This document shows positions 3,216 through 12,994 of a stretch of DNA of 64,000 bases, piece by piece. Both the position numbers and the translations under genes were made by a program. The stretch's first letter is position 1, and each line of letters opens with the position of its first letter. Origin of the DNA: Dehalococcoidia bacterium (GTDB lineage Bacteria; Chloroflexota; Dehalococcoidia; GIF9; AB-539-J10); the NCBI GenBank assembly GCA_021157895.1, contig JAGGVQ010000006.1, positions 80,208-144,207 of the forward strand, written 5' to 3'. The notes under the pieces were generated by a model. It was given only the letters and a program-made list of their open reading frames with translations, was not told the origin of the DNA and made no database searches.

Positions 3216-3683
3216 TTACGCCACTCCATAGAAATCCCAGAGAATACCAAGAGGGAAGGTGGTCTCATCAGAGTTCTGTTTAACTTTCGGTTCTGACTCG
3301 TATATTGCTTTTTCTAAAGCTCTCTGTGCGATGTCTTGTTGATGATTCATCCCTGAATTGTTGCTGCCCTTGCCCTGCGGGGCGCCTAGAAGGAAGCTGG
3401 CTAAACCATGTATTGCATCCCGTTCTTCCTGGATTTTGGCCATATCCCCGATTGATAGTGATCCATAAATTACCTTCACGCAATCCTTAGATTGGTAGTG
3501 TGATTCCCATTGTTTTACATGCTCCACCATATCTGGGGATAAGACTACAATGTATCCTTGGGCTTGTTCCCCTTGACTCCGGATTTCTTTGATGGCATAC
3601 GCAAGCCGGAGGTAGTCCAGTTCGCAATCTAAATAGTTTTTTGGGCTGGAGTAGGATGTTGTTATTCCCAGTATATGTTTCAC
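3216..3683 (-). CDS. hypothetical protein (alpha/beta pattern, no recognisable family)
   Basis: 155-aa ORF with a GTG start preceded by GGAG 9 nt upstream. Composition looks protein-like and I recognise no motif. Confidence 0.5.
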   Translation of the reverse strand: MKHILGITTSYSSPKNYLDCELDYLRLAYAIKEIRSQGEQAQGYIVVLSPDMVEHVKQWESHYQSKDCVKVIYGSLSIGDMAKIQEERDAIHGLASFLLGAPQGKGSNNSGMNHQQDIAQRALEKAIYESEPKVKQNSDETTFPLGILWDFYGVA

Positions 3684-4509: not shown

Positions 4510-5589
4510 ATGCAGATTGTTATTATGGAAGATATGGAGAGTCAGGTAGAGGGACGGCATAGTCATAAGGCAATCTTGCTTGTTGGAATTATGTTTTTGT
4601 TTGGCAGCCTGTTAATGTTTGCTGGTTGCAAGGCTGCTGTGAATCCTCCTCCACCTGTGGCAGTTCCTGATGTCATTCCTCAAAAAGCGGATTTACTGGG
4701 GAGCATCAATATAGCTGAAGTTATAGATGATGATATCTTGACTGCAGCTTACTTGGCTTGGGCCGGAGGAAATTCTGATAAGCCGCCAACCTGGGATGAT
4801 GCTTTAGATAGCATCGAAAGTGATACAGGAGTAGACCTGAGGGATTTTTCTAGTATCATTATGTTTGCTGATGCCCAGTCAGTAGCTAGTTGCAGGGAGT
4901 CTGGAGAGAATGTCAGTATGCCTTATTTTGGTGTTGTAGCTGAAGGAAATCTAAGCGAGAGTGTTCTTGTAGACAGTATAGAGAGTAAATTGGGGCAGGA
5001 GCTTATTACTACTGATTATCATGGCTATGCTATATATAATCTTCCTCCGCTTGATGCTCAGGATGGATCTATCAGCATGGTGTTTCTTGCTGATGGACGT
5101 GTGGTTTTTGGTGATTCAGTTGCTGTCACCGATGTTATTGATGTTGTGCGGGGAGTACACCCATCTATTAGTGGTACTGCTGGTGACCTGTATTCTAAAC
5201 TTGGAGATGTCCCCATTAGGTTAGTAACCCATGTGCCTGGTAGTGTGACCGATGAGATTCCTCCCGAGATACCTCTAGGTCCCACCAGCTTGAGTCTGCT
5301 GTCATTCCACGACATCGAGTATTTGGCGCTCAGCTTGATGAGGAAGCAAGATGTTGTTCATACCGTCGTGAGTCTGGAGTTTAGCAACAGTGATTCAGCA
5401 AAGACCAGCTATCAGATGATGTGGGTTGCTCAAAAGGCAGGCAAGTATATTACGGATGATCCTGATGTTGAAGGTTTACTCTCGAGGGTTCATTTATCTC
5501 GCTCAGAATCTTCTGTGTTCCTAACGGTAGATATGATTGCCAGTGAGTTAAGTGAGATAGTAGATGTCCTCAGCGCGAAGTCTCAATAG
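4510..5589 (+). CDS. hypothetical lipoprotein
   Basis: Hydrophobic signal peptide ending in the lipobox LMFAGC. The mature part is acidic and Ser/Val-rich with no recognised domain. The exact start among several N-terminal Met codons is uncertain. Confidence 0.55.
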   Translation: MQIVIMEDMESQVEGRHSHKAILLVGIMFLFGSLLMFAGCKAAVNPPPPVAVPDVIPQKADLLGSINIAEVIDDDILTAAYLAWAGGNSDKPPTWDDALDSIESDTGVDLRDFSSIIMFADAQSVASCRESGENVSMPYFGVVAEGNLSESVLVDSIESKLGQELITTDYHGYAIYNLPPLDAQDGSISMVFLADGRVVFGDSVAVTDVIDVVRGVHPSISGTAGDLYSKLGDVPIRLVTHVPGSVTDEIPPEIPLGPTSLSLLSFHDIEYLALSLMRKQDVVHTVVSLEFSNSDSAKTSYQMMWVAQKAGKYITDDPDVEGLLSRVHLSRSESSVFLTVDMIASELSEIVDVLSAKSQ

Positions 5590-5669
5590 GCAGAAAGTCC
5601 TTTTGGCCATGCTTGGTTATTCCGCTTATTGACAAGTGAATAGGTGAGAACTCCTTTCTGTTGCGGCAA

Positions 5670-7040
5670 TTAATAATGTGTGGATCTCCTAGATGGTTTT
5701 ATGTTGCCACGATAATCAGGAGCCATAATGTTAAATACCAGGCTTAATTGAGGATCTACCATGCGTGAGCTGATGCGAGCTTCAATTTCATCCAGAGAGA
5801 GGCATGTGGTAATTACGGTAGGAGCCCTGGCATTATAACGATAGTTAATTAGCTGGTAAAGCTTTTCTTGGGCCCAGGGGGTAGCAGCTTGTTCCCCAAA
5901 GTCATCCAGTATCAATAACGGGACCTTTTTAATGTTTTCAAAGGACTCGTCGTAGGATATGTTGCTCTGTGGACTGAAAGTAGAGCGAAGGTAATCTAAC
6001 AGGTCAGGTATGACAATAAAGAAAACAGGTTTGCCTTGTGTTAGCTGATAGTTGCCGATAGCTGCGGCCAGATGTGTTTTTCCACAGCCATTTACACCTT
6101 GAAATATCAACCAGCCCTCTGGAGAGTGGGAAAACTCTTCCGCCAGATGAAAAGCTTGACGTAAATTCTGTCTTTGCTCTGGGGGGAGTTCTAGCCTCTT
6201 GTGATCGAAGTTGTCGAATGTCATTTGCTTCAGTAGTTTTAATTGTAAGTTGTCTAATTTAACCAAAGAGGGTTCTTGCTCCAACCTGTATGCCTGACAG
6301 AAATTGCTGTCTGTGATATGTCGGCGCAAGCGCTCATCCATTTTTTCCAGTGCCACATCACTGGTAATCACGGTTGCTAGTTTGGCATCGAAGCGGTAGC
6401 TGAGTAGTTGCTCTAGTTTCTCCTTCGCCCATGGGGTTGTGCTCTGCGTAGTGAGATCATCGAGTATTAGCAGGGGGGCATTTTTTACTTTCTCGAATAT
6501 CTCGTCATAACTTGCATTACTTGTTGGACTAAATGCTGAGCGCATGTGGTCCAGTAAATCAGCTGCCGAAATATAAAATACTGCTTGGCCTAATGACAGG
6601 CGCTGGTTAGCGGTGGCGCAGGCTAGGTGGGTTTTACCACAACCGCTGGGTCCAAGCAATATCAACCAGCCTTCAGGATGATCGGCGAAGGATTTAGCAG
6701 CCTTGTATGCTTGAGCAAACTCCCCCTGTGTAATTATGTCCTTTGTTTTTCCCTGTGGTGATAAGGTGTCAAAAGTGAAGTGGGATAGAGCTCCCAGATT
6801 GCTGTACTGCTCCAGATATTGCGATTTTTCCTGTAGTATTTCGTCTTGGATACATTGACAGGGCACTATTCGATTGTAATCGGGCTTTCCTGAGGGCAAC
6901 AATGGATGAACAAAACGCGCTCCATTGCAAATAGGACATATTGTTTTTGTGGTGTGACTATCTTTTGACGAGATGTCCATATTTGCCTGAGATGTATTTG
7001 TCTGGATTACCCTTTTTAGTGTTTTGCCAATGTGTTCCAT
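5670..7040 (-). CDS. DnaC/DnaI-like helicase loader with two tandem AAA+ modules and an N-terminal zinc ribbon
   Basis: Zinc ribbon CPICNG...CQC. Module 1 has GPSGCGKTHL, LLILDDL and TVITSD. Module 2 has GVNGCGKTHL, LLILDDF and TVITT. An alternative start is at 6980. Confidence 0.75.
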   Translation of the reverse strand: MEHIGKTLKRVIQTNTSQANMDISSKDSHTTKTICPICNGARFVHPLLPSGKPDYNRIVPCQCIQDEILQEKSQYLEQYSNLGALSHFTFDTLSPQGKTKDIITQGEFAQAYKAAKSFADHPEGWLILLGPSGCGKTHLACATANQRLSLGQAVFYISAADLLDHMRSAFSPTSNASYDEIFEKVKNAPLLILDDLTTQSTTPWAKEKLEQLLSYRFDAKLATVITSDVALEKMDERLRRHITDSNFCQAYRLEQEPSLVKLDNLQLKLLKQMTFDNFDHKRLELPPEQRQNLRQAFHLAEEFSHSPEGWLIFQGVNGCGKTHLAAAIGNYQLTQGKPVFFIVIPDLLDYLRSTFSPQSNISYDESFENIKKVPLLILDDFGEQAATPWAQEKLYQLINYRYNARAPTVITTCLSLDEIEARISSRMVDPQLSLVFNIMAPDYRGNIKPSRRSTHY

Positions 7041-7620
7041 TTTTTTTGCCCTGGCTAGCCCATATTTCCAAAATTCGGGCGATGTATCTCCAACTGCGCT
7101 TGTTTGCCACCACTGCCTCTTTGAAGGCTTGTTCTATCCACTGGGGTGAGTATCGCTTCTCCGACTCCTTGAGTTCTTCCGCTATCATTGGTGTTATTAT
7201 ACCGATGTTCTGCTCGTATAAAGTAAATATATTGGGGGTGGTTTTCTTTCTTTCCCGATTGAGCTGTCTGAAATGTGCTTTGCCTTTCAGGACTTGCTCG
7301 ATTTCATTCCTGTCGGTGTTGTTGGCATAGATGTGCTGAATCTTTCCTCTTGAGTTGAGCGTGGCAGAAAATATGGCCCCGTGTTCAACTGCAAGTTTCA
7401 AGGCTTGTTTGAGTGTTTCCTCATCTAACTCGGCAATGGAACTGGCTTGGGATGCAAGTTCTTGGTATGTAACGTAGGCGGGGATTTTCTTTTTAGAGTG
7501 TAGTAGATAGAAAATAAGTAGAGTTGCTTTGATCTGGGCGATATCGTGAGTTTGTAATAACACATTGGTACAAAATAGGGAAGGTAGCGAGAAGAAGTCA
7601 GTACTCACTGTCTCTGTCAT
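6958..7620 (-). CDS. DnaD-domain replication protein
   Basis: C-terminal DnaD/DnaB_2 signature (NIFTLYEQNIGIITPMIAEELKE...WIEQAFKEAVVANKRSWRYIARILEIW). It lies 8 nt downstream of dnaB. Confidence 0.7.
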   Translation of the reverse strand: MTETVSTDFFSLPSLFCTNVLLQTHDIAQIKATLLIFYLLHSKKKIPAYVTYQELASQASSIAELDEETLKQALKLAVEHGAIFSATLNSRGKIQHIYANNTDRNEIEQVLKGKAHFRQLNRERKKTTPNIFTLYEQNIGIITPMIAEELKESEKRYSPQWIEQAFKEAVVANKRSWRYIARILEIWASQGKKNGTHWQNTKKGNPDKYISGKYGHLVKR

Positions 7621-7628
7621 ATTATCCT

Positions 7629-9035
7629 TTAAGATGTAGAGAGTGGTTGGGCCTTCAGGTTATCAAATTTAGCAATTTTGTCTAGAAATCTGAGCTTAAC
7701 TTGTCCCAAAGGGCCGTTTCTATGCTTGGATATAATGACATCGCTGATGCCTTGGGGGTATGGCTCCATGTCTATATCGTGTAGCCGGCTCCACTCATCC
7801 GGCTTGTAATTCATTTCATCCCTGTTAATGAACAGGACTACGTCAGCATCTTGCTCTATGCTACCACTTTCGCGTAGGTCTGAAAGTTGGGGTATGTGAG
7901 AAGTTCGCCCCTCCACCGCTCTATTGAGTTGGGACATGACTAACACAGGCACGTTTAGTTCTCTGGCTAACATTTTTAATGAGCCTGTTATCTCGGTGAT
8001 TGTCTGAACTCGATTTTGTTTCTTATCCTCGCCTTGGATCAGTTGCAGGTAATCGATGATGATTAAATTGATTCCATGCTCCAGCCCGAGCCGGCGTGCC
8101 TTACTCCTGATATCCATTATGCGCATTTGGGGAGAATCATCAATATATATTGGCGCCTCTGATAGGATTCCACTGGCTTTCACTATTTTTATTTCGTCTT
8201 GTCCATTGAAATCTCTGGAACGAATTTTTTTGAGATCTACCTCAGATTCACTGGCGAGGCAGCGTTGTACTACTGATTCGCGGGACATTTCCAAACTGAA
8301 GAATGTGACGCACGCCTGCTGATTAATGGCGGCATTTCTGGCAATGTTCAGTGCCAGGCTTGTTTTCCCGACGCTGGGTCTGGCAGCTAATACGATCAGA
8401 TCAGACCTCTGCAGCCCTCCCAGAAAATCATCTAGAGCAGTAAATCCAGTCAGGATATTGGGTATTTCTCCTGCCTGCAGCGCAGTTTCCCGACTGGCAT
8501 TGTCGAAGTATTGTCCTAATGCCTCGCGAATTGTTACAAAGTCCTGGGTGCTACGTCGAGTTTTTACTTTGAAAAGTATATCCTCAGCCTTGTTGAGACT
8601 GCCATCGATGTCTGAGTCAGCATTGTAGCCAATGGTAGCGATTTCACCGGCTGCATCAATCAACCTGCGCATTGTAGCCATCCGCGATACTATTTCAGCA
8701 TAGTGCTCAATGTGTAATGATGTTGGCACTATTGAGATCAGGTGGGATAGGTAGGCAACTCCGCCAGCCTGCTCCAGAAGGCCTTCTTGCATTAACTCAT
8801 GAGCCACAGTGATCTGATTTATTGCCTCTCTCTGTGGACGTTGATATAGGGATAGACAGGCTTGATAGACCCATTGATTTATATCTACGAAGAAGTCTTC
8901 TTTCTTGAGGAATGTGGCGACTTTGAAGATAGCTTCGGGGTCGATAAGCAAGGATCCAAGTGTAGCTTCTTCTGCATCGACATCATGAGGGGGTAATTTC
9001 TCTTGCATAATCTTATATTTTTTGTTGTTCAACAA
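7629..9035 (-). CDS. dnaB: replicative DNA helicase
   Basis: N-terminal [16 protein letters not shown], Walker [10 protein letters not shown], and the IIDYLQL and SQLNR motifs. The ATG at 9008 (MQEKLPPH), 4 nt after the rplI stop, is an equally plausible start. Confidence 0.9.
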
Positions 9036-9465
9036 TTACTGTGATACGAGGCTCAAGGTTTTTGCCTAATTTGATACCAATGTTATAGTTACCTATTTCT
9101 CTCAGTGGTTTGTCTATAATCACACTTTTCTTATTGATGGAGGTTCCTATTGTTTGGCTTAATTCCGTGGCGATATCGGCAGCGGTAATGGAACCGAAGA
9201 GACGCTTCCCTGTTTCAGTACGAGCCCGCAGGTGAATTTCCCTTCCTTCAAGTTGCTGAGCTAGCTCAGCAATCTTCTCACGGTTGACTATCTCCTGTTG
9301 TTTTTCCCTCTCTAAGATTAACTGTGCCTGCTTTATTTTCGCTGGTGTAGCCACTGTGGCTAGTCCCATAGGCAAGAGGTAATTTCCGGCGTAGCCTTTG
9401 CTTACCGTTTTTATCTCTCCTATTTGTCCTTTTCCAGGAACATCTTTCAGGAAGATAACCTTCAT
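9013..9465 (-). CDS. rplI: 50S ribosomal protein L9
   Basis: Canonical N-terminus [36 protein letters not shown]. Confidence 0.9.
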
Positions 9466-9700
9466 GATAGAACCAATAACCTCTCAATGCTTGGGCCAGC
9501 GGTAGCGCTACCCTCTGCTATGAGGACTGTCTGTATGGTTGCATTGGAACGGGAGTCTCTAGCAGCCAGTATCCCCGGTAGCTCTGTTTTTATTATTCAC
9601 CCATTGGTTATTATGCACCTCTCATCATTTAGAGGTAAAGCCCTATTTAGCAAAACGGAATTGATGCCTGATACTTTGATGGCTATTTCGTGTGGTGCCT

Positions 9701-10666
9701 TCACTTTTTGTCTATCCTGTCCCACATGTCACAGCGAGCTCCCCATCTCGCTAGGACTTTACCATCCATGGCAATTTGCGATATTTCACACAGGTTAGGA
9801 CAGGCTTTACAGGTGAAGGATGATATTTTGTATTCCGTATTGCTGATGCCGAAACCAGCAAAGCTACTTTTTCTGTGATCATCGCGCATTTCCTCGTGTA
9901 CTAACATGGCTGCCCCGATAGCACCCATCAACTCGTTATGAGGAGGCACAAATACCTCTGTATGGAAGGTTTCATTAAATGCCCTGATTATTCCTTGATT
10001 GAAGGCTACACCACCTTGGAATACCATCTTTGGCAGTATCGCTTTCCCTAGAGCGACATTGTTAAGATAGTTGCGCACTAGTGATTGACTTAATCCATAG
10101 ACGATATCATCGATAGGGTAACCCATCTGCTGTTTGTGTATCATGTCAGATTCAGCAAACACGGTGCAGCGTCCAGCAATTCGTGCTGGATTCTGGCTTC
10201 TCATGGCATGGCTGCCAAAGTCCTCAATCCTTATGTTGAGTCGCTCTGCCTGATGATCGAGGAAACTACCAGTTCCTGCTGCACATACCGAGTTCATGCC
10301 GAAGTCAACGACTATGCCATCACGAACAATTATTATCTTACTATCCTGCCCTCCGATTTCGAAAATAGTTTGAACATCAGGAACGTAATGCATTGCTGCC
10401 ACAGCGTGGGCTGTTATTTCATTCTTCACCAGATCTGCTCCGAGCATGACACCAGCGAGTTGTCTGCCACTGCCAGTGGTAGCAACTCCTGCGATCTGTG
10501 CCTCTTGGGGCATCTGGTTTCGTATTTTTTGCAATCCTTTTTTTATCATGTCCACGGGGTTACCTTGAGTCCTGGAGTAGATCGATGCCACCAAGTCGTA
10601 GTTTTCATTAATCAAAACTAGCTTAGTAGTAACTGATCCAACATCGACACCAAGGTAAGTTTTCAT
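9701..10666 (-). CDS. BcrAD/BadFG-family ATPase (2-hydroxyacyl-CoA dehydratase-type activase) with a Cys-rich C-terminal extension
   Basis: ASKHA fold start GVDVGSVTTKLVL. The cluster-ligand contexts CAAGTGSF and GRCTVFAESD are present, and the C-terminal tail is FTCKACPNLCEI...GARC. AGGAG lies 8 nt upstream of the ATG. Confidence 0.8.
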   Translation of the reverse strand: MKTYLGVDVGSVTTKLVLINENYDLVASIYSRTQGNPVDMIKKGLQKIRNQMPQEAQIAGVATTGSGRQLAGVMLGADLVKNEITAHAVAAMHYVPDVQTIFEIGGQDSKIIIVRDGIVVDFGMNSVCAAGTGSFLDHQAERLNIRIEDFGSHAMRSQNPARIAGRCTVFAESDMIHKQQMGYPIDDIVYGLSQSLVRNYLNNVALGKAILPKMVFQGGVAFNQGIIRAFNETFHTEVFVPPHNELMGAIGAAMLVHEEMRDDHRKSSFAGFGISNTEYKISSFTCKACPNLCEISQIAMDGKVLARWGARCDMWDRIDKK

Positions 10667-10677
10667 CGTGTATTCTC

Positions 10678-10887
10678 CTATTCCATCCTCTCCATGGATG
10701 TCCCTCCGAAGCTCTTAATCCTGCCCTTATTAGCATTTTTAATGCTTTCTTGTAGTTCCAACGACTTCCTTGCTTGTCGAGCCCAGAAAGGATGAAACAT
10801 TATCGCACTGATAGCCATAAATATGAAGAATATCAGCAGGAGCCTGCTATTGATAAGCTTACCTAGTGTTGTATATTCTTCTCCCAT
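10678..10887 (-). CDS. small single-pass membrane protein (69 aa)
   Basis: Strong SD (AGGAGaaaaaATG) and one hydrophobic helix (LLLIFFIFMAISAIMF). Its stop codon overlaps the SD of the activase gene. It overlaps the 3' end of the upstream gene by 29 nt in another frame. Confidence 0.4.
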   Translation of the reverse strand: MGEEYTTLGKLINSRLLLIFFIFMAISAIMFHPFWARQARKSLELQESIKNANKGRIKSFGGTSMERME

Positions 10888-11965
10888 TTTTTCTCCTGCG
10901 AAATTCCAGCAAATCTACAAAAGCTTCCAGTCTGGTTAATAATCCTTGTTTCCCCTGTTGCTCATCGCAGGTGACTGCGAGCACGGGTATATCCTCACGT
11001 GTAGAGGGCATAACATTTTGTGCTACTATTTCAGGCATACAGGTAAAGGGGGCCAGGTGAACTATTCCATCAAAACCTTTGTGAGCAAAGAGGATTTTTT
11101 CACCTACGGATTCCCAGCCATCGCCACCAACATCATGATCGATGTAGGGTTTGGCTAGATGGTGGACTTTCCTCCATTCATCCGCCCCGAGATAATTCAA
11201 GAATAAACTATATTTGACCCAGCGGGAAAGAGTCATCGTTCGTTCTACCTCGACCCCCAGTTTACCTAGTTCCTCCTCGATATCCATATTAGCGAAGGGT
11301 TCAATAACTACATAAATTTCGCCTACGACCCCCACCTTTAGGGGGTGATCTTTATTGTTTTTTTCGATGTGGTTGAGTTTCTCAATGTATTCTTTGGTTA
11401 TGTCTTTTATCCCTTTACGCTTTGTTGCCTCATCAATGTTTCGAATGGCTTCGTGGTAAATTTTGTTAGCTGTGCCTTTTTCTACCTCGATAGCTCGGAT
11501 TTCTTGAACTACTTTCTCTATCTTGTCTAGGGCAAATAGTTTGCTTATTCCAAAGAAAAATGCGGATGAAATTTCATACCACGAGGCATCATTGGCCAAA
11601 TTTTTTATTAGTCGCAGGATACTGATTAGCTTATTGTGCGATACATCTATGGTGAGAAATTTAGCACTATATCCCAGATCTCTCAATATCTGTTCTTGGT
11701 TTTTAGCATAATAGCCCAGTCGACAAATACCACTTCCCCTGGCCTGAGCTAATGTATTTGCTCCAAGCTCACATGTTTCAATTAGGCTTCCCAGAGTAAG
11801 TTTGTATGGCAAACAGGCCTCATAGGGAGAGTATTTTACCCCCAGGTTCAGAGTTTTTTGTGTCATGGGTGGAGGTATTATCAAGGCGTCCGTGATGCCT
11901 AGCTGCTGAGCTATTGCTTTCATGGGGACATAAACGTTGCCGAAATGAGGTATACCTAATTTCAT
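10859..11965 (-). CDS. DUF2229/HGD-D-like subunit B (acyl-CoA dehydratase activase-related protein)
   Basis: Paralog of 11990-12994. It shares the conserved Cys contexts (EACLPYK, APFTCMPE) and the C-terminal LTRLEAFVDLL. Confidence 0.7.
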   Translation of the reverse strand: MKLGIPHFGNVYVPMKAIAQQLGITDALIIPPPMTQKTLNLGVKYSPYEACLPYKLTLGSLIETCELGANTLAQARGSGICRLGYYAKNQEQILRDLGYSAKFLTIDVSHNKLISILRLIKNLANDASWYEISSAFFFGISKLFALDKIEKVVQEIRAIEVEKGTANKIYHEAIRNIDEATKRKGIKDITKEYIEKLNHIEKNNKDHPLKVGVVGEIYVVIEPFANMDIEEELGKLGVEVERTMTLSRWVKYSLFLNYLGADEWRKVHHLAKPYIDHDVGGDGWESVGEKILFAHKGFDGIVHLAPFTCMPEIVAQNVMPSTREDIPVLAVTCDEQQGKQGLLTRLEAFVDLLEFRRRKNGRRIYNTR

Positions 11966-11989
11966 ACTATTTATTTTCTCTTTTTGCGT

Positions 11990-12994
11990 CTAGCAATAAG
12001 CAGGGGAGGGGGTTGGGAGTTTTGTCCCTTTTCTCTTAATCATATCAAGAAAGGCTTCTAGGCGAGTTAGCATAGCGCCTCCACTACTGTGTTCATCTAG
12101 GCTGAGTGGCAGGAAAGGGGTCTTGGTATCCTTGGCACGATGCTCTACCCATACCATCATCATTGAATCAGGGCCGCAGCCGAAGGCGGAAAGGCTAATG
12201 ATTCCATCGACTTTCATTTCTGTGTAGTATTGTCCTGCACCGATAATATCTGGTTCAAAAGCCCAATGGGTTTCACCAACTGCTTTTGTTGCCGCGGCAT
12301 CTATAGCTGTCTGTGATGCCATTTCCGATGTAAGTATGTTGGCCCCCATATTTTGCAAATGATATATGATGCGGTGATTCAGATATTCATCATTAGTGAT
12401 ATAGGGATGTCCCAGCAGGGCGATGGTTAGGTTCCCTTGGGGGTTTTTCTGGGGACTTGCACTATGAGGGTTTCCATACAGGTCAGAGAGGGCCTGATTA
12501 GGTGTAATTTTCTCATCGGACATTTTTTTTCTGTAAGCTAGCTGCTTCTGCCATGCAATATCTATTGCTTTTTTCATCTTGACTGGGTTGGATGTGAAAT
12601 GGCTGGCCAATTTGTATATCTGGTGGTAAAAATACCAGCGCCCCTTTTCCAGGTCTATATTGGGGTCGAGAATGATAGGGCCCTCTGGGAGCACTGCTCT
12701 GGTTATATTGGGTAGCCCGATAATTTTGGAGCAGTTGTAGGTCTTCTTTCCGAAGCTGGTCATGCTGGGAATGAAAATGTAGTCACACTTGCTGATTAAG
12801 GATATTGTATGTCCCAGGAAGACTTTTACAGGTAAGCAGGTATCGGCAACTGCTCGGGATATTCCTGCGGTTAGTATAGTTCTGTTCGTTGGGGGTGATG
12901 TTACTACCTCTGCACCAAGGTGTTCGAAAAACGACCTCCACCCAGGATAATATTGATAATAGAGCAGAGCTCTAGGAATACCTACTTTATTCAT
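11990..12994 (-). CDS. DUF2229/HGD-D-like subunit A (acyl-CoA dehydratase activase-related protein)
   Basis: N-terminus KVGIPRALLYYQYYPGWRSFF, with DTCLPVK, SAFGCGPDS and the C-terminal LTRLEAFLDMI. Confidence 0.7.
   Translation of the reverse strand: MNKVGIPRALLYYQYYPGWRSFFEHLGAEVVTSPPTNRTILTAGISRAVADTCLPVKVFLGHTISLISKCDYIFIPSMTSFGKKTYNCSKIIGLPNITRAVLPEGPIILDPNIDLEKGRWYFYHQIYKLASHFTSNPVKMKKAIDIAWQKQLAYRKKMSDEKITPNQALSDLYGNPHSASPQKNPQGNLTIALLGHPYITNDEYLNHRIIYHLQNMGANILTSEMASQTAIDAAATKAVGETHWAFEPDIIGAGQYYTEMKVDGIISLSAFGCGPDSMMMVWVEHRAKDTKTPFLPLSLDEHSSGGAMLTRLEAFLDMIKRKGTKLPTPSPAYC

Follow-up and report, generated by a model that had tools for sequence, protein, structure and literature searches.

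Analysis of a 64,000-nucleotide (nt) stretch of DNA from a Dehalococcoidia bacterium (GenBank assembly GCA_021157895.1, contig JAGGVQ010000006.1, positions 80,208 to 144,207 of the forward strand; below, the window, with coordinates counted from its first letter) uncovered a helicase loader of the DnaC/DnaI type, in which the whole AAA+ ATPase module is present twice in a single chain of 456 amino acids (aa). This two-module loader is not a new kind of system; rather, it is an old variant of the DnaC/DnaI-type loader that is lineage-wide and, it appears, undescribed. With a probability of roughly 0.6, we read it as a chromosomal helicase loader in which, after an ancient duplication, module 2 would act as the hydrolyzing engine and module 1 as an accessory that binds ATP and single-stranded DNA (ssDNA). 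The mechanistic models of bacterial helicase loading have all been drawn from single-module loaders, such as Escherichia coli DnaC, Bacillus DnaI and the phage loaders, which must oligomerize and whose six chemically identical ATP sites make it hard to tell binding from hydrolyzing sites. The loader described here carries two non-equivalent sites per chain, and these are kept across the sampled Dehalococcoidia and their SAR202 and Anaerolineae relatives.

The duplication is apparent from profile searches, wherein each of the Pfam models IstB_IS21 (PF01695; E = 4.9e-37), Bac_DnaA (E = 7.8e-18) and AAA (E = 1.9e-13) matches the protein in two separate stretches, as do the NCBIfam loader and initiator models. 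When the two halves are aligned with each other, 76 of 172 aa are identical (44%) in an ungapped alignment (E = 1e-53), a similarity far beyond chance. The first-pass annotation of this DNA, made from the letters alone, had proposed such an internal tandem duplication, to be checked with these three Pfam models and by self-alignment of the halves; both bear it out, and all the motif strings that it quoted are found in the 456-aa open reading frame (ORF). The protein begins with a conserved N-terminal peptide followed by a zinc motif, module 1, a linker, module 2 and a basic tail. The linker region (aa 254-272) shows a mean pairwise identity of 37% among the orthologs, and the AlphaFold2 (AF2) predicted local distance difference test (pLDDT) score falls below 50 for aa 256-265. 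In Foldseek searches a single AF2 module matched DnaI (2w58; TMt 0.72, root-mean-square deviation (rmsd) 3.4 A), Aquifex DnaC (3ecc; TMt 0.79, rmsd 2.8 A) and 6qem_G, whereas at the sequence level the best PDB matches are E. coli DnaC 6qel (E = 1.3e-16), Aquifex DnaC 3ec2 (E = 1.3e-11), DnaI 2w58 and IstB. In keeping with the earlier statement that characterized loaders have a single module, 6qel, 3ec2/3ecc, 2w58/4m4w and the IstB structures 5bq5/8q3w each match one module's worth of the query.

The two-module form is widely represented among uncultured Chloroflexota. A protein search recovered at least 8000 matches, and the best 120 of these are 430-488 aa long and 66-98% identical to the window protein, of which they cover 92-100%; those carrying a name are annotated as "DNA replication protein DnaC", "AAA family ATPase" or "ATP-binding protein" and are assigned to Dehalococcoidia or Chloroflexota. 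Among the best 120 matches to a Dehalococcoidaceae ortholog from a metagenome-assembled genome (MAG), none is named as coming from a cultured Dehalococcoides, all being from uncultured bacteria. In a scan of one genome per species, at least 546 relatives were confirmed among at least 599 pattern matches, and we analyzed the best 80 loci (L001-L080), all of them in MAGs labeled Dehalococcoidia, Dehalococcoidales or Chloroflexota. At 79 of the 80 the match spans nearly the whole protein (residue 1 to residues 446-456), with identities down to 55%; L034 ends at a contig edge and its match begins at residue 53. Locus L001, from a Dehalococcoidia MAG, is 98% identical and has the same flanking genes. 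The survey of related genomes that had been suggested thus recovers the two-module architecture and its synteny at 79 of 80 loci, and the same uninterrupted ORF at these loci supports one gene over two genes split by a stop or a frameshift. At L072 (8001-8315; MFD04408.bin.2.187) the loader ORF stops prematurely after about 104 codons, reflecting either a pseudogene or an assembly error.

This recurrence also bears on the possibility that the gene is an artefact, with two loader genes fused by a sequencing or assembly error, or that it belongs to a mobile element as an IS21 IstB or a prophage loader. One could point to IstB_IS21 being the best Pfam name and to the premature stop at L072. However, the uninterrupted two-module ORF is found at 79 of 80 genome loci of different species and in thousands of database proteins, and the modules are only 44% identical, so that a collapse or expansion during assembly is implausible. 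As for a mobile origin, the score against the NCBIfam IstB equivalog (NF038214) is 145, below its cut-off of 200, and the neighbors are rplI, dnaB and dnaD, with no transposase or phage gene found by Pfam among the neighbors of the loader in the window. On the strength of this recurrence, the synteny, the IstB score and the chromosomal neighbors, we reject assembly artefact, IstB and prophage origin alike, and regard the chance that any of them applies as negligible.

The age of the duplication can be gauged by comparing the modules within and between proteins. Module 1 and module 2 are 45.1% identical within a protein and 45.3% identical between proteins, and in a neighbor-joining tree the module 1s and the module 2s of the Dehalococcoidia and SAR202-type proteins fall into separate clades. 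Taken together, these observations imply a single duplication older than all the sampled species, without concerted evolution, and our sequence comparisons thus point to a duplication that would predate the divergence of all 79 sampled orthologs. Tandem proteins of equal length are found in SAR202, and also in Anaerolineae and Aggregatilinea at about 35-45% identity. A census of 269 proteins yielded 220 with two full modules, 45 with one (many of them fragments), two with three and one with four. Scoring the Anaerolineae modules with hidden Markov models (HMMs) is uninformative on their orthology, as both fit the profile of the slowly evolving module 2 better, and the deep nodes of the neighbor-joining tree are unreliable, so that one duplication is not distinguished from two separate ones in Dehalococcoidia and Anaerolineae.

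The two modules differ in the residues lining their ATP sites. As reference we used E. coli DnaC, for which the excerpts of the published study (PMC8213410) give Walker A K112, Walker B E170, sensor I N203, the arginine finger R220, sensor II R237 and the coupler R216, and state that losing any of K112, E170, N203, R220 or R237, as in N203A, abolishes the ATPase activity. Across the 79 orthologs, to which all residue counts refer, the Walker A lysine is invariant in both modules (K136 and K321, each 79/79), and the Walker B aspartate pair is kept in 78 orthologs in module 1 (D194/D195) and in all 79 in module 2 (D379/D380). Both modules also retain counterparts of DnaC K143, F146, S177 and Y179, which we take to be the ssDNA-contact positions: R167, F170, T202 and W204 in module 1, with R167 and W204 present in 79/79 and the other two nearly invariant, and R352, F355, T387 and W389 in module 2, likewise invariant or nearly so. 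Module 2 retains R422 (67/79) as coupler, R426 (78/79) as putative finger and R444 (78/79) as putative sensor-II arginine, the last within a PDYRG motif that aligns to the "SYR" of IstB. In module 1 there is no sensor-II arginine, with R252 of the window protein falling in a V/T/A column; the finger position 241 is R in 39, H in 36 and Q, K, F or Y in 4 orthologs (His241 in the window protein); and 17 orthologs are without the coupler, a loss accompanied in 16 of them by His at the finger position. The sensor-I asparagine has been replaced in both modules, by D228 in module 1 (D in 52 and I in 18) and by C413 in module 2 (C in 59, S in 7 and R in 7). Hence, the earlier description of both modules as catalytically intact holds for Walker A and B throughout and, as assigned here, for the finger and sensor II of module 2; it fails for module 1, with no sensor-II arginine and a His at its finger position, and for sensor I of both modules.

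Relatives with other numbers of modules furnish a natural deletion series, in which it is invariably module 1 that goes and module 2 that stays, along with one lineage amplified to four modules. In P0124 (278 aa) the N-terminal peptide and zinc motif are joined directly to module 2, which is 71% identical to that of the window; its cluster at 90% identity has 44 members, on contigs of up to 531 kb. A metagenome scan recovered 30 loci with a single-module loader in open frames of 285-362 aa. All those reaching far enough lie in an L9-dnaB-dnaD-loader operon, and no second module-bearing ORF was found near the loader at any of the 30 loci. In all 30 single-module loaders each half of the module scores as module 2, and the deletion junctions are of two kinds, namely YSNLSS joined to LLRNMTFD and YSGL joined to (D/E)LELLKNMTFD. 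In a DnaB tree, the single-module lineages appear at four or more places among the two-module lineages. Taken together, the scattered positions, the uniform module 2 affinity and the two junctions indicate that module 1 was deleted repeatedly, while module 2 was never lost in this sample; judged by these comparisons, module 1 is dispensable and would have been deleted several times independently.

At the other extreme, P0121 (827 aa; L081 6001-8484, on a 63,956-bp contig of Logan DRR538840) displays a zinc motif followed by four non-identical AAA+ modules, encoded downstream of dnaB and a DnaD-domain gene. Its modules 1-3 cluster with the Anaerolineae-type module 1 and its fourth with module 2 in the neighbor-joining tree; the first three look canonical and the last is without sensor I and sensor II. 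The adjoining DnaB (L081 3433-5259, 608 aa) bears an intein (PF14890, Intein_splicing). A further protein, P0122 (792 aa), has three modules, of which the first two are nearly identical, and a repeated C-terminal segment; its appearance suggests either that a tandem duplication took place recently or that the assembly is at fault.

The N-terminal region preceding the modules has its own conserved signature. The peptide follows the pattern M/V-E-x-I-G-E-I-L-K-R...TNTS, which is also present in the 33-39% identical relatives P0195 and P0217, and has an AF2 pLDDT below 50. In the zinc motif, C35-x2-C38...H45...C61-x-C63, all five residues are invariant in 44 homologs, upholding the zinc ribbon that had been noted ahead of the modules. 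A search for a DnaI_N Pfam match found none on the N-terminal region of the loader, where the AF2 pLDDT is below 50. In Bacillus subtilis, DnaI-N binds zinc via Cys67, Cys70, His84 and Cys101 and binds the helicase (PMC2673437); by analogy, the zinc region of the loader is presumed to be a helicase-binding N-terminal domain.

Based on the above, we propose that the loader is co-transcribed with dnaB and a DnaD-domain co-loader, and that an ancient duplication would have placed two modules behind one zinc-binding N-terminal domain, after which the modules specialized. The predicted ATP-dependent loading of the cognate DnaB is supported by the conserved operon with dnaB and dnaD; its identity as a loader is further supported by the IstB_IS21 and Bac_DnaA matches, the matches to loader structures and a published survey of Chloroflexi genomes that lists one dna[CI] gene and no dciA. 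The zinc domain would anchor the loader to DnaB, in the manner of the zinc-binding DnaI-N. Module 2 (aa 270-445) would be the ATP-hydrolyzing and indispensable part. Module 1 (aa 85-259) is under relaxed constraint at its sensor-I, coupler and finger positions and has lost sensor II; it most likely binds ATP and ssDNA, with slow hydrolysis or none, and would constitute an accessory or regulatory layer. One could instead view module 1 as an inert relic, a pseudo-ATPase spacer with no role in binding nucleotide or DNA. The lack of sensor II, the variable finger, coupler and sensor-I positions, the repeated loss of module 1 while the gene itself stays and its lower conservation than module 2 are all compatible with such a view. 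However, the near-complete retention of K136 (79/79) and D194/D195 (78/79), the invariance of R167 and W204 with F170 and T202 close behind, and a mean pairwise identity of 65% for the core of module 1 (76% for that of module 2) against 37% for the linker point to a retained nucleotide- and DNA-binding signature rather than drift, rendering an inert module 1 quite improbable.

How the chains might be arranged on the helicase is a separate matter, on which we lean, at somewhat less than even odds and from sequence features, toward like-with-like contacts (module 1 to module 1 and module 2 to module 2). With one chain seated on each DnaB protomer, a DnaC-type spiral would wind around ssDNA in two successive turns or tiers made up of the twelve modules. 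We favor such contacts because module 1 is relaxed in both its cis (sensor II) and trans (finger) elements while module 2 keeps both, because loaders with module 2 alone exist, and because one, two and four modules occur in the same operon context, where four could not tile a six-position ring. Taken further, this becomes a multi-tier loader of Chloroflexota, with one chain per DnaB protomer, a module 1 turn serving as a nucleotide-locked ssDNA clamp and a module 2 turn as the hydrolyzing engine, wherein the number of modules would act as a dial for ssDNA capture at the origin. We consider this extended form doubtful; if true, it would give the initiator/loader clade of AAA+ proteins its first "type II" member.

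The opposite geometry, which develops the covalent dimer raised in the first-pass annotation, would be an in-plane covalent pseudo-dimer, with three chains giving an alternating M1-M2-M1-M2-M1-M2 spiral on the DnaB hexamer held by three N-terminal anchors, which would hard-wire the stoichiometry and an alternation of strong and weak ATP sites. Both modules keep Walker A and B and the counterparts of the DnaC ssDNA contacts, and so either could fill a spiral position; the short, poorly conserved linker could bridge neighboring positions; and three pseudo-dimers would suit the N-terminal collar of DnaB, a trimer of dimers. What speaks against it is that every composite site would then mix one conserved with one relaxed element, leaving none fully canonical: the site of module 1 would be without sensor II, and that of module 2 would be given an R/H finger. 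Further, each of the repeated clean losses of module 1 would have required a change from three to six chains per helicase, and six ring positions cannot be filled evenly by chains of the four-module relative found in the same operon. We therefore regard the pseudo-dimer as unlikely.

Several observations weigh against our preferred reading of a module 2 engine with a module 1 accessory, and against its tiered arrangement. Sensor I of module 2 is a Cys where the Asn is essential for ATPase activity in DnaC, so that even the proposed engine is non-canonical. The arginine-finger assignment is based on the R-x3-R motif; the ungapped HMMER alignment with E. coli DnaC is four residues out of register with it, so that R426 would pair with the coupler R216 and Pro430 with the finger R220. 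We prefer the motif alignment because the arginine pair is conserved as a whole across all the module types examined, and because the 18-residue spacing from R426 to sensor II matches that between DnaC R220 and R237, which we take to be 17 residues. Further, 117 Anaerolineae-type tandems show the opposite polarity, with a canonical module 1 (sensor I N in 116/117, finger R in 117/117) and a relaxed module 2, in which sensor I is A, S, Y, T or V and the second Walker B Asp is N, Q or H in 20/117. Finally, in AF2 runs with 44 and 146 sequences the modules are confidently predicted (mean pLDDT 81.6 in the second run), but the geometry between them is not (predicted template modeling scores of 0.45 and 0.53), and as a whole the model superposes poorly on the two-tier proteins p97, NVL and Yta7 (TMq at most 0.45, rmsd 11-20 A), which leaves the tier model without structural support.

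The features of the locus are collected in Table 1. The gene order on the minus strand is rplI-dnaB-dnaD-loader, and the Pfam and NCBIfam matches of the neighbors agree with the earlier view of the loader as the last cistron of a tight operon. Wherever the contig reaches, this synteny is kept in the best 80 loci, with dnaD present at 79, dnaB at 71 and L9 at 64. The DnaD-domain protein is presumed to be a co-loader or adaptor. From its listed TTG start, dnaB shares 23 nt with the end of rplI; translation may in truth begin nine codons further downstream, at an ATG (MQEKLPPHD...). A promoter and terminator scan of 5450-9800 gave counts no higher than expected from shuffled sequence and hence no evidence on the operon ends.

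Table 1. Features of the two-module loader and its operon in the window, with the loci of its single-module relatives
Feature	Coordinates	Strand	Detail or evidence
Loader coding sequence	5670..7040	-	ATG start, 456 aa plus stop; ORF listing, two-stretch Pfam/NCBIfam matches, full-length orthologs
Conserved N-terminal peptide, aa 1-24 (MEHIGKTLKRVIQTNTSQANMDIS)	6969..7040	-	ortholog alignment
Zinc-binding motif, aa 35-63 (CPICNG...H45...CQC)	6852..6938	-	alignment of 44 sequences
AAA+ module 1, aa 85-259	6264..6788	-	envelope of module HMM built from orthologs
Module 1 sites			K136 Walker A; D194/D195 Walker B; D228 sensor-I position; R237 coupler; H241 Arg-finger position; sensor-II Arg none
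Inter-module linker, aa 260-269	6234..6263	-	lowest conservation and model confidence
AAA+ module 2, aa 270-445	5706..6233	-	envelope of module HMM built from orthologs
Module 2 sites			K321 Walker A; D379/D380 Walker B; C413 sensor-I position; R422 coupler; R426 finger; R444 sensor II
Basic C-terminal tail NIKPSRRSTHY plus stop	5670..5705	-	sequence
Dual-coding overlap of dnaD and loader, 83 nt	6958..7040	-	last 27 dnaD codons and first 27 loader codons, in different frames
dnaD-like gene, 220 aa	6958..7620	-	PF07261 DnaB_2 (E 1.1e-10); TIGR01446 DnaD_dom (E 5.3e-12)
dnaB, replicative helicase	7629..9035	-	DnaB_C (E 1.9e-97); DnaB N-terminal domain (E 2.2e-27)
rplI, ribosomal protein L9	9013..9465	-	Ribosomal_L9_N and Ribosomal_L9_C matches; first gene of the cluster
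Single-module loader loci			L082-L101, L103-L105, L107, L109, L111, L137, L156, L157, L161

The 456-aa reading depends on where the loader starts, as the first-pass annotation had computed overlaps with dnaD of 83 nt for a start at 7040 and 23 nt for one at 6980, figures with which we concur. All 79 full-length orthologs have a start codon at the counterpart of 7040 (ATG in 38, GTG in 40 and TTG in one), and in 20 of the 79 no alternative in-frame start lies ahead of the zinc motif. Met21, which would give the start at 6980, is ruled out, the position being not conserved and usually Thr. We take the start at 7040, and with it the 456-aa reading, to be supported by sequence conservation because the start codon is conserved there, a conserved peptide follows it and Met21 is not conserved. 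The overlap is 80-92 nt long across 79 orthologous loci and exactly 83 nt in 51 of them, in which both frames are conserved, with mean pairwise identities of 65% for the DnaD tail and 55% for the loader N-terminus; such conserved dual coding suggests a tight translational coupling of DnaD and loader. The loader start codon (ATG or GTG) arises from a conserved Asn/Ser-Gly dipeptide of DnaD, and a run of eight A residues (7041-7048), not conserved in the orthologs, immediately precedes the loader ATG within the dnaD frame. In the database proteins P0388 (671 aa) and P0315 (638 aa), ORFs read from DnaD-like sequence into the loader, with P0388 changing frame inside the overlap; coming from contigs of about 2 kb, both are probably sequencing or gene-calling errors, the alternative being a frameshift fusion.

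The flanking genes are ordinary chromosomal ones, coding for an HNH endonuclease, a LuxR-type regulator and BcrAD_BadFG/DUF2229 activase-type proteins. Directly upstream of rplI (9701-12994, minus strand) lie genes for a BcrAD_BadFG-type activase ATPase and two DUF2229/HGD-D "CoA enzyme activase" proteins, and 22 of the 80 related loci likewise have the activase gene ahead of rplI. Downstream of the loader are an uncharacterized ORF of 359 aa and the LuxR-type regulator. The former (4510-5589, plus strand) has no Pfam match, as is also the case for a 155-aa ORF (3216-3683, minus strand); it converges on the 3' end of the loader and, among the 80 genome loci, is kept only in the 98%-identical L001.

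The two-module loader offers a ready system for studying the division of labor between ATP sites, helicase stoichiometry and ssDNA capture. Behind the automatic names "DnaC" and "ATP-binding protein" lies an architecture of its own, in a major phylum that is mostly uncultured. Among the NCBIfam models, the cut-offs of the equivalogs DnaC (PRK07952; 138.9 versus a cut-off of 357) and DnaI (PRK08939; 117.8 versus 228) are not reached, as was the case for IstB; the subfamily model PRK08116 alone passes (214.2 versus 189), with a score that is the sum over the two modules. A survey by Brezellec (2016; PMC5109545) reported one resident dna[CI] and no dciA in the surveyed Dehalococcoides, Anaerolinea, Chloroflexus and Roseiflexus genomes, and a later preprint reported DciA homologs in some Chloroflexi. 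The "domesticated dna[CI]" of Chloroflexi in that survey is probably the same gene family as the loader; neither the article nor its supplement speaks of a duplicated or tandem ATPase module, and in the full-text literature, with most subscription journals outside its coverage, we found no description of a tandem or multi-module DnaC/DnaI bacterial helicase loader.

Of the known systems, the DnaI of B. subtilis and Geobacillus likewise has a zinc-binding N-terminal region followed by a DnaC/DnaI-type AAA+ fold with the R-x3-R box VII motif, and acts together with the DnaD and DnaB co-loaders; here too the genome codes for a DnaD-domain protein, in this case right next to the loader. The two differ in the number of modules (two versus one), in the zinc spacing (CxxC-6-H-15-CxC versus C67/C70/H84/C101) and in the location of the loader gene in the dnaB operon, with its 83-nt overlap with dnaD. 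With the DnaC of E. coli and Aquifex aeolicus the loader shares Walker A and B, and it has, as assigned above, counterparts of the coupler arginine, the arginine finger, sensor II (in module 2) and of K143, F146, S177 and Y179. However, DnaC has a single module behind a helical, zinc-free N-terminal domain, and its sensor-I N203 corresponds to Asp in module 1 and Cys in module 2. The IstB of IS21 belongs to the same AAA+ subfamily (PF01695), and its C-terminal region, including sensor II, aligns well (5bq5). Yet, IstB has one module and no coupler arginine, whereas the loader has no IstA transposase nearby and sits in a conserved chromosomal dnaB context. Finally, in having two AAA+ modules per chain, the loader resembles the type II AAA+ proteins, such as p97/Cdc48, NSF, NVL and Yta7, in which one module is catalytically dominant and the other mainly binds nucleotide, a division that the asymmetry of the loader modules matches; those proteins belong to the classic clade, whereas the loader belongs to the initiator/loader clade.

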